Shown here piece by piece: positions 7,652 to 63,078 of a stretch of DNA of 64,000 nt (positions are counted from its first letter, which is position 1; each line of letters opens with the position of its first letter). Origin of the DNA: a bacterium (GTDB taxonomy: Bacteria > Patescibacteriota > Andersenbacteria > UBA10190); NCBI GenBank assembly GCA_030698495.1, contig JAUYKA010000008.1:14895-78894 (forward strand). The letters run 5' to 3'. Under the pieces are notes generated by a model, which was given only the letters and a program-made list of their open reading frames with translations, did not search any database and was not told the origin of the DNA. The translations under genes and the position numbers were made by a program.

Positions 7652-8632
7652 ATGGCAATAGATTTGAGTAAAAAGAAAATTATGGTGACTGGCGGGGGTG
7701 GATTTTTGGGGTCTTATGTTGTAGATAAGCTAAAAGCTATGGGGGTTAATGATATATTTGTCCCTCGCAAGAAAGACTATGATCTGGTTGATTTGAGTGA
7801 TGTACGCAAGGCCTATAATGACAGCAATCCGGATATAGTTCTACACTTGGCAGCCGTTGTTGGTGGGATTGGCGCTAATAAAGAATTTCCGGGACGGTTT
7901 TATTATGACAATTTGATGATGGGAGCCCAGTTGATGGAAGAAGCGCGGTTGCGCGGCGTTGAAAAGTTTGTGGCGCTGGGCACTATATGTTGTTATCCAA
8001 AGTTCGCGCCAGTACCCTTTAGGGAAGATGACCTCTGGAATGGATACCCGGAAGAGACTAATGCTCCTTATGGCCTGGCAAAAAAGATGTTATTGGTGCA
8101 GAGCCAAGCCTATCGGCAGCAGTATGATTTTAACAGCATATTTTTAATGCCGGTTAATTTATATGGCCCTAAAGACAATTTTGACTTGCAGTCATCACAT
8201 GTTATGCCTGCATTAATCAGAAAATTTTCAGAAGCGGTGGATAAGGGTTTCCCAATGGTGACTGTTTGGGGCACCGGAAACCCAACTAGAGAATTCTTAT
8301 ACGTAGAAGACTGTGCCCAAGCCATTGTTTCAGCGACGGAAAAATATGATGGCCAGGAGCCAGTTAATATAGGGTCGGGATATGAAATTTCAATTAAGGA
8401 TTTAGCGGAGTTGATTGCTGAATTAACTGGTTTCAAAGGCTCTATAGTTTGGGACGACAGTAAGCCGGATGGCCAACCAAGGCGCAAGCTTGATGTTAGC
8501 CTGGCTAAAAAATATTTTGATTTTGAAGCACTAACAAGTTTTAAAGAAGGGCTCAAAAGGACCATAGAATGGTATTATAAAAGTAAATACCGCCAATCTA
8601 AAAATGTGCGGGAGCTTCATAGGGCGAATTAA
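7652..8632 (+). CDS. fcl: GDP-L-fucose synthase (GDP-4-keto-6-deoxy-D-mannose 3,5-epimerase/4-reductase).
   Basis: The N-terminus has the Rossmann motif [10 protein letters not shown]. The motifs [39 protein letters not shown] and [13 protein letters not shown] align with E. coli Fcl (SSCIYPK, EPTNEPYAIAK, PTNLYGPHDNF, SHVIPAL, SKPDGTPRKLLDV). Confidence 0.9.
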
Positions 8633-8653
8633 ACCGCCAAGTACTTTATTAGT

Positions 8654-9475
8654 ATGCCGATTATAAAAGACTACATAATTAAAACTACTCTAAAAGGGAT
8701 AGAAAACACGGTCGGGTTGTTTGGTAAAGAGTTGTCAATCGGCGGTGAAAGGGGAGAGGTAACTTTATTTATGGGATTGCCAAAAGACATGGATCCTGCT
8801 TTTCAGCGCATATATAAAGAATGCCGTCCTTACACAATGACTTCTGTAGAGCGAATGTATGCCCTATACCAGGCCACAAAATATATTATTGTTCAGCATC
8901 TTCCTGGTGATTTTGTCGAGTGCGGGGTGTGGAGGGGAGGAAGTGTGATGCTGGTGGCTAAAACTCTTAAAGAACTTGGCGTAACTGATAGGCGTATACA
9001 CCTATTTGACACATTTAAGGGGATGACTACTCCAACTGACCGTGATGCAAGGATATCTGACAATCTGCCGGCAACTTCCCTATGGAAGACGCAAGCTCGC
9101 GGTGACTATAACGAATATGCTTATGCTCCCCTTGAAGATGTGCAGCGAAACTTGTCGACTACGGGATATCCCGAGGAAAATTTTGTTATTGTTGCCGGTC
9201 CAGTGGAAGAGACTTTACCACGATTAGCCCCACCAAAAATTGCTCTTTTGCGTTTAGATACGGACTGGTATGAGTCTACTAAACATGAATTGGAACATCT
9301 TTTCCCGCTGCTTGTACAAAATGGCATTCTAATCATTGATGATTACGGGCATTTCACCGGTGCACGGGATGCAGTTGACGAATATTTTAAGGAGAAAGGC
9401 ATTAATCTTCTATTAAACAGAGTGGACTACACTGGGCGATTGGCTATTAATACCGCGCCGCAAAATAACGGCTAA
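8654..9475 (+). CDS. TylF/MycF-family SAM-dependent sugar O-methyltransferase.
   Basis: The motifs FVECGVWRGGSVM and LRLDTDWYESTK are typical of macrocin O-methyltransferase-like class I methyltransferases. Confidence 0.8.
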   Translation: MPIIKDYIIKTTLKGIENTVGLFGKELSIGGERGEVTLFMGLPKDMDPAFQRIYKECRPYTMTSVERMYALYQATKYIIVQHLPGDFVECGVWRGGSVMLVAKTLKELGVTDRRIHLFDTFKGMTTPTDRDARISDNLPATSLWKTQARGDYNEYAYAPLEDVQRNLSTTGYPEENFVIVAGPVEETLPRLAPPKIALLRLDTDWYESTKHELEHLFPLLVQNGILIIDDYGHFTGARDAVDEYFKEKGINLLLNRVDYTGRLAINTAPQNNG

Positions 9476-61296: not shown

Positions 61297-61316
61297 AAGT
61301 TATAAAAAAGATTTTA

Positions 61317-62906
61317 TTATATGGTAAGATCCGGTGTTTTAGAACGCGTTAACTTATTTTTGGCAATTGCGACAATGTCGTGAATTTCTTCGATGCGCCA
61401 GAGGTAAGCGGCCGTTAGGTAGAAGGCGGCGCCGGTTATGATAGGTATTATAACCTGGATTAGGTTGCTAAGCGCTGGCTGGTCGGGGAAAATAGATAAG
61501 AGAGGGAAGACAAGCCGGAGAAGGAAAAACATGGCGACGGTTAGTACTATGATTTTGGGGTAGGAAGAATGCCAATAGGCAAGGTGGAGGCGAGGAATGA
61601 AACGAGAGAGGTAAAGGAAATACAGTCCGGCTATAACTAGCGGTACAAGTGAAGAAGCCAGGGCTAATCCGGCCACACCCATTCTGGGGGTGAGTAGGAC
61701 GAAGAGAAAAATCGCAACAGCTTGGGAAGATATAGATACGGCGACAGCCGCGCGAGTTTCCTGCAGAGCCAGAACGGTGTGACCGAGAATAGAGCTTAAA
61801 CCGTTGATAGCTAGGCCTAACCCCAAGAAGAGGAGAGCGATGCTGGTTAGGCGAGTATCAGCCGCGGAAAAAGATCCGTGTTGGTAAAGTAATGATATCA
61901 GCGGCAGGCGCAGTATGATTATGCCGGCGATAACTGGCAGGGTAATAAGGAATATCAGGCGGCTGGCATAGCCGATGGTGTCGCGCATGCCGGTAAAATC
62001 TTGCTGGCTGGACTTGGCGGACAAGAGGGGAAAAATGACAACTGTGATTGAATTTAGAAACATGATTGCCAGAAGTTGAGTGATTTTCTCGGCATATTTT
62101 AGAGAGGAAAGGCTGCCGGCGGAAAGATCAGATACAAGGACGCGATAAACGATACCAGCTCCTTGCGTAACTAGGACGGAAAAAAGAAAGGGATAGGTAA
62201 GACGAAGCATTTTTTTGAAAGCGGGATCAAGCGGGGCAAAGACAAAACGATAATGAAAATTTTTGCGTCCAAGCGTCCAAAAGACCAAAAGTAATTGCAG
62301 GCAGGATCCCGCCAATACGCCAATTGCCAGCGAGTAGATGCCAATTAATGAAGTGAGAGTGGCCACCGCTATTAAAGAAACGGCGGGGGCAATTACGCGC
62401 AGTAGAGCCGGTACAATAAACGACTTAAGCGAATAGAGTATGGATACAGCCAAATCCACCAGATACAGAAACAGGAAAGAGGGCAGCATGATGCGCAATA
62501 GCGCCACGGTCAGGTCGGTGGTGACAGGATCAAACCCGGGTGCGATAAAGGCGACGAATGGCCTGGCAAAAAGAGCCAGGAGAGTAATTAAAATGATAAA
62601 GATACAACCGGTGACATGTAGGATGTTTAAACCGAGTTGCCAAGCTTCCTGGTGTCGGTTTTTGGCGATGCGGTTAACAAACATAGGTAGAAATACGGCG
62701 GTAATAGAACCGCCGAGCAACAACTTACTAAGCATCTCCGATGTTGATTGTGCCATAAAGAAGGCATCGGTTTTAGATGAGGCGCCGAAGAAGTAGGCAA
62801 CCGTTAACTGAAGGAGAAATCCGACCAGCGCGCCGCCCAGGGCGGCCGAGCTGATCAAGCTGGCGGACCCGATTGTTTGTTGTGACTCCTTGGTGTTTTT
62901 ATTCAT
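61317..62906 (-). CDS. murJ: MurJ/MviN-family (MOP superfamily) lipid-linked glycan flippase.
   Basis: 529 aa with about 14 TM. The N-terminal LQLTVAYFFGASSKTDAFFMAQSTSEMLSKLLLGGSITAVFLPMF matches the MurJ N-terminal signature (fGas..tDAff.A...P....eGa...afvP.f). Confidence 0.7.
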   Translation of the reverse strand: MNKNTKESQQTIGSASLISSAALGGALVGFLLQLTVAYFFGASSKTDAFFMAQSTSEMLSKLLLGGSITAVFLPMFVNRIAKNRHQEAWQLGLNILHVTGCIFIILITLLALFARPFVAFIAPGFDPVTTDLTVALLRIMLPSFLFLYLVDLAVSILYSLKSFIVPALLRVIAPAVSLIAVATLTSLIGIYSLAIGVLAGSCLQLLLVFWTLGRKNFHYRFVFAPLDPAFKKMLRLTYPFLFSVLVTQGAGIVYRVLVSDLSAGSLSSLKYAEKITQLLAIMFLNSITVVIFPLLSAKSSQQDFTGMRDTIGYASRLIFLITLPVIAGIIILRLPLISLLYQHGSFSAADTRLTSIALLFLGLGLAINGLSSILGHTVLALQETRAAVAVSISSQAVAIFLFVLLTPRMGVAGLALASSLVPLVIAGLYFLYLSRFIPRLHLAYWHSSYPKIIVLTVAMFFLLRLVFPLLSIFPDQPALSNLIQVIIPIITGAAFYLTAAYLWRIEEIHDIVAIAKNKLTRSKTPDLTI

Positions 62907-63078
62907 GGTTCCAATAAAAAACTATGGCCAATGTCAGTAATAGGATGCCGGCATAAAAAAGGGACGTGTCCGCATAAGGGGTAAATAACGCTGACTGCAG
63001 CCAGCGCATGGCAGTAACAAGCGTAGATGCTACTAAGAACGACAAGGCGAGAAAAATAGTTACCTGTTCAAGTTTCAT
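62899..63078 (-). CDS. Small 2-TM membrane protein (59 aa), translationally coupled to murJ. It is below the ORF-track length cut-off.
   Basis: It reads MKLEQVTIFLALSFLVASTLVTAM...ILLLTLAIVFYWNHE. Its stop overlaps the murJ ATG (cATGAATAA). Its start overlaps the upstream gene stop. Confidence 0.3.
   Translation of the reverse strand: MKLEQVTIFLALSFLVASTLVTAMRWLQSALFTPYADTSLFYAGILLLTLAIVFYWNHE

Follow-up and report, generated by a model that had tools for sequence, protein, structure and literature searches.

The region described here is a large block of glycan-related genes in a bacterium of the Andersenbacteria, a lineage within the candidate phyla radiation (CPR, or Patescibacteria). The sequence analysed, referred to as the window, is a stretch of 64,000 nucleotides (nt) from contig JAUYKA010000008.1 of assembly GCA_030698495.1, and positions are counted from its first letter. 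Open reading frames (ORFs) of at least 100 amino acids (aa) were listed, and 59 non-nested ones were taken and numbered g1 to g59 from left to right. All 59 were scanned with Pfam, selected ORFs were also scanned with NCBIfam, and PDB sequence searches were made for some of the proteins.

Layout and gene content

Glycan genes start near position 300 and run at least 9 kb beyond position 64000, giving a region of at least 74 kb, which is larger than the 55 kb (7652–63000) of the preliminary description. To the right of the window (locus L001, 1–9800) there are a Wzx-like Polysacc_synt gene, a gene for a 774-aa protein without a family match, a glycosyltransferase (GT) gene of family GT4 and one of family GT2, followed by genes for a 595-aa protein, a Cu-oxidase_4 (PgeF-like) protein and a further GT4, so that the glycan region extends through this locus.

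Comparison of gene neighbourhoods splits the locus, which had been presented as a single system, into a conserved core, an island of lower GC content and three small insertions. At the left is a block of YfhO-like membrane-protein genes (311–7539, mixed strands), which is outside the range 7652–63000 but part of the same region. Next is the variable island A (7652–31464), which contains an Fcl-like short-chain dehydrogenase/reductase (SDR), methyltransferases, GT4 and GT2 genes, and a nonulosonate-type cassette (16629–25207) identified from Pfam, NCBIfam and PDB matches. Core segment 1 (31442–36624: GT2, GT4, GT4, PpgS-like GT2, DUF2304 protein, SDR) is followed by the inserted cassette B (36621–43065: ABC exporter, GT4, a 477-aa polytopic protein, two small proteins, SDR) and then by core segment 2 (43090–47517, plus strand), consisting of a GT-C gene and two GT4 genes. 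Insertion C (47550–48900) carries a Trp-repressor-like helix-turn-helix gene and a small membrane-protein ORF, and precedes core segment 3 (48930–59052: GT4, GT4, GT9, a 129-aa protein, GT4, GT2, CE4 deacetylase, TagB/TagF-like enzyme, GT2, GT9-like). Insertion D is a pilin-like gene (59136–60179, plus strand), and core segment 4 (60154–63677, minus strand) encodes a GT-B enzyme, MurJ and a conserved 200-aa protein with a single transmembrane (TM) segment.

The dense inventory of glycan genes reported earlier was confirmed by hidden Markov model searches (Pfam, NCBIfam) and PDB matches, and the counts are close to those claimed. The expectation of at least 11 GT4 enzymes was correct: Pfam (Glycos_transf_1/Glyco_transf_4) identifies 11 among the 59 ORFs (27735–28718, 28715–29818, 30457–31464, 32224–33303, 33306–34823, 38553–39659, 45263–46411, 46408–47517, 48930–50096, 50316–51539 and 53236–54390), and a twelfth GT4-like GT-B enzyme (60154–61296) is recognised by fold only. 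Matches to PF20706, 'GT4 in conflict systems', always score below the general GT4 matches on the same proteins. Five or six GT2 enzymes had been counted, and five are firm by Pfam (9472–11151, fused to a methyltransferase; 31442–32260; 34413–35258; 54512–55396; 57236–57943), while a sixth (26845–27732) is weak, with 17.5 bits and under the cutoff. The two polyprenol-phosphate sugar synthases are indeed matched as a type, but they are not extra genes, being the GT2 enzymes 34413–35258 and 57236–57943. One of the two GT9 enzymes is firm (51536–52753) and the other only weak (58006–59052). Nine methyltransferases become seven over the Pfam cutoffs, including one of TylF type, one of FkbM type and the GT2 fusion, and two faint ones (14954–15655 and 22897–23562). 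The six GT-C-like proteins include one supported by fold (43090–45249), but the YfhO-like ones are at 1152–7539, to the left of the range given. Fcl, two further SDRs, two NeuB-like proteins, a cytidylyltransferase domain, a KdsC-like haloacid dehalogenase (HAD) protein, CE4, the ABC exporter and MurJ hold at the level of family. Only one flippase-like gene besides MurJ is found in the window, namely the ABC exporter, with the Wzx-like gene just outside, so the plural flippases of the earlier account do not stand. A sugar role is backed directly by family or fold for about 40 of the 53 ORFs between fcl and murJ, where nearly every one had been called a glycan enzyme.

MurJ (61317–62906) passes the NCBIfam equivalog cutoff (238.4 vs 235.55 bits); all NCBIfam matches other than MurJ and the prepilin domain fall under their equivalog cutoffs. 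No match to PF00953, PF03808, glycerol-3-phosphate cytidylyltransferase, ABC-2 or LytR_cpsA_psr was found among the 59 window ORFs, nor, with Pfam, any priming phosphoglycosyl transferase (PF00953, PF02397). The window also has no Pfam match to a Wzy_C-type ligase, Wzz, O-oligosaccharyltransferase, STT3 or protein O-mannosyltransferase (PMT), and no UDP-sugar 6-dehydrogenase by Pfam or NCBIfam. Scans of the window for tRNA and Rfam families found nothing.

A conserved core beside murJ

Neighbourhoods were compared around murJ in 12 relatives, using six-frame ORFs, and around the GT-C gene in four relatives (loci L020, L022, L025 and L026). The 12 are species-representative metagenome-assembled genomes labelled Candidatus Andersenbacteria or, automatically, 'uncultured Saccharibacteria', and their MurJ relatives have 52–58% identity. 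NCBI attributes the GT-C protein of the window itself to Candidatus Andersenbacteria. The order g59, MurJ, g57, GT9-like, GT2 (g54) and, further along, TagF-like is kept in the 12 loci at 42–65% identity. After the TagF-like gene, the order in loci that are long enough is CE4, GT2, GT4, GT9, GT4, GT4. In L022 the order is GT4 (the g30 ortholog), PpgS-like GT2, DUF2304, SDR, GT-C, four GT4 genes, GT9, GT4, GT2, CE4 and TagF-like, and the stretch downstream of the GT-C gene is kept in this order in all four relatives. The genes of core segment 1 have 40, 32, 50, 66, 57, and 63% identity to L022 genes, which follow one another in the same sequence and end immediately before the GT-C gene; GT2 31442–32260 and GT4 32224–33303 are semi-conserved members of this segment. 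Orthologs of core segment 3 are found at 42–65% identity, in the same order, in L020, L022, L025 and L026 and in the murJ loci that are long enough. The core is a set of about 20 genes beside murJ that is syntenic among Andersenbacteria relatives, and its last gene in the window is that of the conserved single-TM protein g59 (63075–63677, minus strand); beyond the window it goes on with the Wzx-like gene, further GT2 and GT4 genes and the PgeF-like gene.

In 9 of the 11 relatives with DNA past the GT2, a YfhO-like gene lies directly beside this GT2 (the g54 ortholog). No YfhO-like gene is beside g54 in the window, where such genes are found only at 1.1–7.5 kb.

The GT2 enzymes 34413–35258 and 57236–57943 match PF00535 with scores of 79 and 111 bits respectively. 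Their best NCBIfam models are PpgS, AglJ and dolichyl-phosphate-hexose transferase, all below cutoff, and suggest that both enzymes use a lipid-phosphate acceptor. For 34413–35258 the best model is PpgS, with a score of 91 bits against a cutoff of 370, so that this protein is not an ortholog; PgfS is also matched (41 bits). This gene is followed by those for a small DUF2304 membrane protein (35255–35641, 76 bits) and an SDR (35638–36624). The best NCBIfam models for the two SDRs other than Fcl are LegB/RmlB/UXS-like and TviC/GalE-like.

The ORFs 33306–34823 (minus strand) and 34413–35258 (plus strand) overlap by 411 nt. The former (505 aa) is over-extended at its 5′ end, since the GT4 orthologs are about 385 aa long and the GT4 domains of the ORF do not start until residue 128. 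The gene caller used for the public contig has no minus-strand gene at 33306–34823 and starts the GT2 at 34512, which is probably its true start.

Core segment 3 contains the CE4 deacetylase (55403–56038) and the TagB/TagF-like GT-B protein (56040–57263). The latter matches PF04464 with 40.2 bits (cutoff 22.1) over its C-terminal 110 residues only, and its best NCBIfam model is the BFO_1060 family (73.5 bits, cutoff 200). It has an HP motif at residue 243, and a D/E-D/E-G motif was not found in it. Its sequence makes it no more than a candidate for a transferase that uses a CMP- or CDP-activated donor.

Two glycosyltransferases without a family model

The 719-aa membrane protein g40 (43090–45249) has no Pfam, NCBIfam or PDB sequence match, and only a few of its orthologs match DUF6311. 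Its structure was predicted from an alignment of 50 orthologs with a mean pLDDT of 91 and a pTM of 0.90. The prediction is confident, and indicates that g40 is a GT-C glycosyltransferase without a family model: it has the multi-spanning fold, is encoded near a GT-A enzyme, and conserves an acidic residue of its first outer loop. This residue, D47, is invariant, and a conserved motif, GGDPWQ, follows the first TM helix. The GT-C fold is as close to PMT and STT3 as to AftD, and a WWD motif was not found in g40. At the C terminus (approximately residues 600–711) is a β-sandwich, for which Foldseek gives a match to carbohydrate-binding modules (CBM) of families CBM6/35/36. The homologs of g40 form more than 120 clusters, and all those with an informative source name are from Andersenbacteria.

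The second protein, g57 (60154–61296, 380 aa), likewise has no family match by sequence. Its AlphaFold2 model (pLDDT 94) has a GT-B fold, with Foldseek matches to MshA (E 3e-11) and also to PimA, BshA and PglA, and g57 is predicted to be a GT4-like GT-B enzyme without a family model. There are 266 homolog clusters, in which every informative source name is again Andersenbacteria.

Neither PDB sequence searches with 43090–45249, 60154–61296 and 11210–13066 (a 14-TM protein in island A) nor searches with profiles of two of these three gave a match. Family-less proteins were also scanned with Pfam to E 10 and NCBIfam to E 0.1, with no usable match for the remaining ones. The polytopic protein 39647–41080 (477 aa) of cassette B belongs to a library-wide family of 101 representatives, of which 2 of the 56 aligned members match EpsG, a Wzy-like Pfam family; by sequence it may be called EpsG/Wzy-like at best. 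When the GT-C profile of g40 was compared using hhalign with 11210–13066, 39647–41080, 4690–7539 and the family profile of 39647–41080, the probability was below 1% in each case.

The YfhO-like block consists of g1 (311–985, plus), g2 (1152–2273, plus), g3 (2274–4712, minus) and g4 (4690–7539, minus), and its proteins have 13–14 predicted TM segments each. Against a cutoff of 28.5 bits for Pfam YfhO (PF09586), 4690–7539 scores 27.9 and 1152–2273 scores 20.9, and 2274–4712 has no match. As these scores are just under the gathering threshold, the proteins are called YfhO-like and not members of the YfhO family. By sequence comparison g3 matches g4 with E 1e-8 and the GT-C g40 with E 5e-4. g1 and g2 match consecutive parts of g3 (812 aa), residues 297–411 and 437–807, and together resemble a paralog that has been split or has decayed and is without its N-terminal third. 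In relatives a homolog of 4690–7539 sits between the GT2 and the TagF-like gene, and the one in L022 matches PF09586. The proteins of this block are GT-C candidates. A 22-nt tandem duplication (1027–1073) is found between two ORFs here.

The variable island and the insertions

Island A genes (7.65–31.4 kb) have no ortholog beside the core in any of the four relatives. Each relative has different glycan genes at the same position (AsnB-like, DegT, PMT-type GT-C, GtrA, CE4 and other methyltransferases). Gene GC content is 0.35–0.44 in the island and 0.45–0.52 in the core. A mobile-element origin of the island is not supported, with no tRNA or Rfam match and no flanking direct repeats. In L020, L022 and L025 the variable region has an AsnB-like glutamine amidotransferase gene beside genes for membrane proteins of 509–686 aa without a family match, which may point to sugars in these relatives that are amidated, or to uronic amides; no AsnB-like glutamine amidotransferase gene is present in the window.

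The island starts with the Fcl-like SDR (7652–8632) and a TylF O-methyltransferase (8654–9475). The 18 best PDB matches of the SDR are all GDP-L-fucose synthases (E 1.7e-66 to 1e-39), and Fcl is its best NCBIfam model (312 bits, cutoff 500). Gmd was not found in the window; on its model, which has a cutoff of 415, the SDRs other than Fcl reach only 48 and 64 bits.

Cassette B consists of an MsbA/HepA/PglK-like ABC exporter (36621–38480, minus strand), the GT4 and the polytopic protein already mentioned, two small proteins (41077–42027) and the TviC/GalE-like SDR (42109–43065). It is absent from L022, since the ortholog of the SDR 35638–36624 directly abuts the GT-C ortholog there. Insertion C is absent in the relatives, where the orthologs of 46408–47517 and 48930–50096 are adjacent. 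Its Trp-repressor-like gene (47585–48043; Pfam Trp_repressor, 54.5 bits) is flanked by a perfect 28-nt palindrome, TATTACCACATATCGATATGTGGTAATA, at 47550–47577 and a 93% identical copy at 48053–48080. The palindromes may serve as operators, or may mark the two ends of a small cassette that was inserted. In the same insertion, ORF 48158–48637 (minus strand) encodes a small membrane protein with two N-terminal TM helices and a Pro/Glu-rich tail. It is overlapped in a GC-rich stretch by ORF 48033–48368 (plus strand), which is probably spurious; neither has a family match.

The pilin-like protein (59136–60179) was correctly recognised in the preliminary description as rich in Pro and Thr. It matches the TIGR02532 prepilin N-terminus over cutoff (18.7 vs 16.3), reading G-FVLAE with Glu at +5, as well as Laminin_G_3 (56 bits), and has a 75-residue tail that is 78% Thr+Pro+Ser. 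Its proposal as the glycan acceptor fared less well. The gene is present at this site in 0 of the 12 relatives, where the GT9-like gene directly abuts the GT-B gene, so that it is not a conserved part of the system.

The nonulosonate cassette

The cassette within island A starts with a 401-aa protein that has no family matches and a GT-B-like C-terminal motif (16629–17834), two nucleotidyltransferase-like proteins (17821–19825) and a DUF4910/DUF2172/HTH_47 aminopeptidase-like protein (19829–21097). These four genes precede the NeuB genes in what appears to be a single operon, and their products could modify or transfer a nonulosonic acid. They are followed by a fusion of a NeuB-like N-terminal half (109 bits) with CTP_transf_3 (63 bits) at 21099–22904, the weak methyltransferase (22897–23562), a NeuB+SAF synthase (23563–24636; PF03102, 225 bits, plus a SAF domain) and a KdsC/KDN-9-phosphate-phosphatase-like HAD protein (24644–25207, minus strand). 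The synthase scores 263 bits on NeuB TIGR03569 (cutoff 400) and has PDB matches to SpsE, PseI and NeuB. The HAD protein is of C0 type and resembles KdsC, the phosphatase-like domain of CMP-Neu5Ac synthetase and the Bacteroides KDN-9-phosphate phosphatase.

NeuC, PseB/C/G/H and LegB/C/G were not found in the window with Pfam or NCBIfam, and the precursor route is therefore incomplete there. The HAD protein suggests instead a 9-phosphate (KDN-type) route from a sugar 6-phosphate. The candidates for the nonulosonate transferase are 56040–57263, from its sub-cutoff BFO_1060 match, and 16629–17834.

The NeuB/cytidylyltransferase fusion is rare, with about 30 clusters at 28–40% identity, including Geosporobacter and Pusillimonas. 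It has 601 aa here, and the cluster member from its own genome has 597 aa, probably because the start codon was called differently. On an unrelated contig (L023), PseB-, PseC- and PseG-like genes are followed by a fusion homolog, a GNAT gene and NeuB/SAF, which by its gene content is a pseudaminic-acid layout. The order fusion, small enzyme, NeuB/SAF is common to the window and L023, the small enzyme here being the weak methyltransferase.

The preliminary description had the glycan contain fucose, a HexNAc-uronic or Gal-configured amino sugar, and a nonulosonic acid. This composition is not established by the window, which has Fcl without Gmd, no UDP-sugar 6-dehydrogenase, and no NeuC, Pse or Leg precursor enzymes.

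Soundness of the assembly

The contig might be a chimera in which glycan clusters from different metagenome organisms are joined. GC shifts at about 7.6 and 42 kb, and single-run assemblies that end at 47.55, 52.3 and 55.08 kb, could be read in this way. However, about 62.5 kb of the window recurs with 100% identity in three independent assemblies. Positions 1–47579 lie, without a difference, on a 51.6-kb contig from a single run, which thereby includes the DNA of the NeuB-family genes, at the same offset on both sides. Other independent contigs, from a second run and an NCBI genome, cover 47551–52306, 53814–63646 and 55078 to past 64000 with 100% identity, and only 52307–53813 lies outside all independent contigs. 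The contig ends coincide with the 28-nt palindrome (47550–47577), a 40-nt tandem repeat (52217–52296) and a GTATTTT repeat (55079–55108). Synteny in the relatives bridges the segments that flank the breaks, and the gene order of 48.9–63.7 kb is identical there. Furthermore, an unusual GC skew runs through every gene but one, island included. The check for a chimera that had been called for is thus largely answered; a chimera is not supported, and we regard it as very unlikely.

The 40-nt tandem duplication at 52217–52296 lies inside the GT9 gene, and this repeat is at a contig end. A 32-nt tandem duplication (54503–54566) crosses the start of the GT2 gene 54512–55396 and the sequence just upstream. 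Measured on the plus strand, whichever strand is coding, the GC skew is +0.226 for the window as a whole and lies between +0.08 and +0.38 in every gene except g20 (−0.02). Among relatives, L005/L020 (CAZSUC010000001.1) has an absolute skew of 0.27–0.30, and other Andersenbacteria loci about 0–0.13.

Comparison with known systems

The best-matching known model, by analogy, is multi-component transmembrane glycosylation acting on a cell-wall glycopolymer. Such systems begin with a GT-A enzyme, at times assisted by a small membrane protein, that attaches a sugar to undecaprenyl phosphate; a flippase then takes it across the membrane, and a GT-C enzyme transfers it to lipoteichoic acid, wall teichoic acid or another wall polysaccharide (PMC8035078, PMC5836110). 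The examples are Gram-positive, namely CsbB/GtcA/YfhO, GtlA/GtlB and GacI/GacJ/GacK/GacL (review, PMC8035078; discovery, PMC5836110), and large GT-C enzymes such as AftD bear carbohydrate-binding domains for the polymer acceptor (PMC8035078). The region here is similar in having putative GT-A (GT2) enzymes of polyprenyl-phosphate-sugar type together with a GT-C predicted to act outside the membrane, a GT2 with a separate small membrane protein (here DUF2304), a GT2/YfhO-like adjacency in the Andersenbacteria relatives, and a GT-C with a CBM-like domain. This domain and the proximity of murJ are indirect hints of a wall-polymer acceptor. It differs in that the window has no GtrA-type flippase, a Polysacc_synt Wzx-like gene lying just to its right and the window itself having the ABC exporter and several small membrane proteins without an assigned role; the main GT-C is outside Pfam and NCBIfam families and the YfhO-like scores are sub-cutoff; LtaS and TagO/A/D/G/H are absent from the window; and the host is a CPR bacterium. 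The PF04464 match might point to the wall teichoic acid pathway; TagO, TagA, TagD, TagGH and LytR-CpsA-Psr (LCP) proteins were not found in the window.

A second comparison is with the galactosamine modification of mycobacterial and corynebacterial arabinogalactan, which uses PpgS (Rv3631), Rv3632, the epimerase Rv3634c and the GT-C Rv3779 (PMC9671496). The window resembles this in having a PpgS-like GT2, a small membrane partner and an SDR epimerase beside a GT-C gene, and the core CE4 could match the unidentified deacetylation step of that system. Rv3632 is, we presume, a DUF2304 protein. It differs in the score of the GT2, which as noted is below the PpgS cutoff.

In having lower-GC, strain-specific content between conserved genes, the region is like the clusters for O-antigen, capsule and S-layer glycans. 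With such loci and with Tannerella forsythia, whose O-glycan carries terminal pseudaminic (Pse) or legionaminic (Leg) acid (PMC5420450, PMC5378307), it also shares methyltransferases, a NeuB-family synthase and a CMP-transferase. The BFO_1060 family, which is the best model for the TagB-like GT-B of the window, is that of the Tannerella Pse/Leg transferases (PMC5420450). The window differs from these in that a priming transferase, Wzz, O-antigen ligase and O-oligosaccharyltransferase are absent from it, as are PseB/C/G/H, LegB/C/G and NeuC, and in that its TagB-like gene is in the core and not in the NeuB island. Finally, the Pgf system of Streptococcus mutans (PgfS, PgfM1, PgfE and PgfM2) modifies Thr-rich surface adhesins (10.1101/2022.10.10.511621). 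It shares with the window a GT2, an epimerase and GT-C membrane enzymes, and the window encodes a Pro/Thr-rich surface protein. However, Pgf has four genes compared with more than 25 transferases here, the Pro/Thr-rich gene is not conserved with the core, and the PgfS match is low.

Discussion

We consider it probable that the region is a composite, in which a lineage-wide core beside murJ is combined with a strain-specific island and insertions, and that it is the main cell-envelope glycan region of this Andersenbacteria bacterium. The reading is built on what was observed, namely the families and folds of the proteins, the taxon, the synteny, the contrast in GC and the agreement between assemblies, and from these we infer donor sugars, the order of steps, the acceptor and the 9-phosphate route. 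The division into core and variable parts is supported by their distribution, as the fusion has about 30 distant clusters, some outside the CPR, compared with 120–266 Andersenbacteria clusters for the core proteins.

In the core, the soluble GT-B enzymes (about eight GT4-like, two GT9-like and one TagB/TagF-like) and the GT2 enzymes would build a glycan on the cytoplasmic face of the membrane, and the CE4 enzyme would de-N-acetylate an N-acetylhexosamine. The product would be decorated outside the membrane by two modules, each a GT-A plus a GT-C. In one, the PpgS-like GT2, its DUF2304 partner and the adjacent SDR epimerase would make a polyprenyl-phosphate sugar, for use by the GT-C 43090–45249, whose CBM-like domain would hold the glycan acceptor. 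In the other, GT2 57236–57943 would feed a YfhO-like GT-C. The island at 7.65–31.4 kb and the cassette at 36.6–43.07 kb, spliced beside and into the core, would supply a variable outer part with O-methylated sugars, a 6-deoxyhexose made via the Fcl-like enzyme, and a nonulosonic acid. The last would be synthesised by NeuB, dephosphorylated by the HAD enzyme and activated with CMP by the fusion, along the KDN-type 9-phosphate route, and cassette B would bring its own ABC exporter or flippase. Such a variable part would correspond to the regions that vary in loci for O-antigens, capsules and S-layer glycans. Cytoplasmic assembly by GT-B and GT-A enzymes, extracytoplasmic decoration through polyprenyl-phosphate sugars and GT-C enzymes, many methyltransferases and a nonulosonate-type cassette were all put forward in the preliminary description, and are supported here.

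As the product we favour a wall-associated glycopolymer or lipoglycan over protein, because of the murJ and PgeF-like neighbours, the many cytoplasmic transferases, the CBM-like domain of the GT-C and the absence of an oligosaccharyltransferase. The absence of a priming transferase and an O-oligosaccharyltransferase from the window would fit a polymer anchored to a glycolipid or the wall and initiated elsewhere.

Several points weigh against this interpretation. To our knowledge there are no biochemical or compositional data for any CPR glycan. The sub-cutoff NCBIfam scores mean that substrate specificities are guesses, and the KDN-type route is drawn from one phosphatase and the absence of other enzymes. 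The window has no GtrA (PF04138) match, and no LCP ligase, TagO/TagA/TagD, LtaS or priming enzyme. The island is called variable from four relatives with 10-kb flanks, and only for the position beside the core. It has no integrase, tRNA or flanking direct repeats and shares the strong GC skew of its host, so recent horizontal transfer is not shown.

The 55 kb might alternatively be one pathway, making a single methylated heteroglycan with fucose and nonulosonate on one acceptor. The genes are contiguous and tightly packed, many with overlapping or abutting frames, nearly all are glycan-related, and island and core could make parts of one polymer in the manner of lipid A-core and O-antigen. But the core has no island genes beside it in four of four relatives, and its neighbours differ each time. 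Moreover, the parts are unlike in GC content, the fusion enzyme has few and distant homologs while the core enzymes are ubiquitous in the lineage, and there are two or three separate options for export or flipping (ABC exporter, MurJ and the Wzx-like protein outside the window). We therefore think one pathway quite improbable.

Another alternative is protein O-glycosylation of PMT or Pgf type, in which the polyprenyl-phosphate-sugar synthases and GT-C enzymes would glycosylate Thr/Pro-rich surface proteins (the pilin-like protein, pilins or an S-layer) and the cytoplasmic transferases would extend the glycans. A Pro/Thr-rich pilin-like protein is encoded inside the locus, the four genes for a GT2, a small membrane protein, an epimerase and a GT-C are reminiscent of S. 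mutans PgfS/PgfE/PgfM1/M2 (with a PgfS match of 41 bits), and true PMT/PMT_2 genes occur in the variable regions of relatives. The fold of g40 is also as near to PMT and STT3 as to AftD, and pilin glycosylation has been predicted, untested, in Saccharibacteria (10.1101/2024.11.25.624915). On the other hand, the pilin-like gene is missing at the site in all 12 relatives, the window has no Pfam match to PMT, STT3 or Wzy_C, and g40 lacks the WWD motif and has a CBM-like domain, as in the polymer-binding AftD (PMC8035078). The more than 15 glycosyltransferases are also far beyond the needs of known Pgf or PMT systems. We regard protein glycosylation as doubtful, and prefer the composite of core and variable parts with a wall glycopolymer or lipoglycan as its product.

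The cell surface is central to the biology of CPR bacteria, which, with genomes of about 1 Mb, live attached to host cells. The enzymology is conventional: every superfamily is a known one, and bacterial surface-glycan loci are normally built as a conserved frame around a variable centre. The glycans of CPR bacteria have received little description. In a study of Saccharibacteria pili, glycosylation is described as "unexplored" (10.1101/2024.11.25.624915), and we found a single genetic hint, an essential set of exopolysaccharide-like genes in Southlakia (PMC10633639). No description of such glycan loci, nonulosonic acids or teichoic-type polymers in CPR/Patescibacteria was found in the literature. 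The suggestion that the system may be undescribed holds only in part: its logic matches that of the multi-component systems (PMC8035078), but no description was found of its form and size in a CPR bacterium, or of the two model-less families.

What is new is that at least 74 kb of a CPR genome of about 1 Mb is devoted to this region, that it has a lineage-wide core beside murJ, and that it encodes two transferase families without a model. The core is a concrete, testable gene set, and the catalogue of glycosyltransferases gains two families. It is possible, though we put it forward only tentatively, that the core makes a lineage-defining Andersenbacteria envelope glycopolymer, a CPR analogue of teichoic acids or lipoglycans that uses the two model-less glycosyltransferase families, and that the hypervariable island, with its methylated sugars and nonulosonate, is a serotype-like determinant of host or phage recognition in an episymbiont, the two together taking up about 7% of the genome. 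The layout of core plus variable parts predicts diversity of the surface at strain level, which could govern host range and phage susceptibility.

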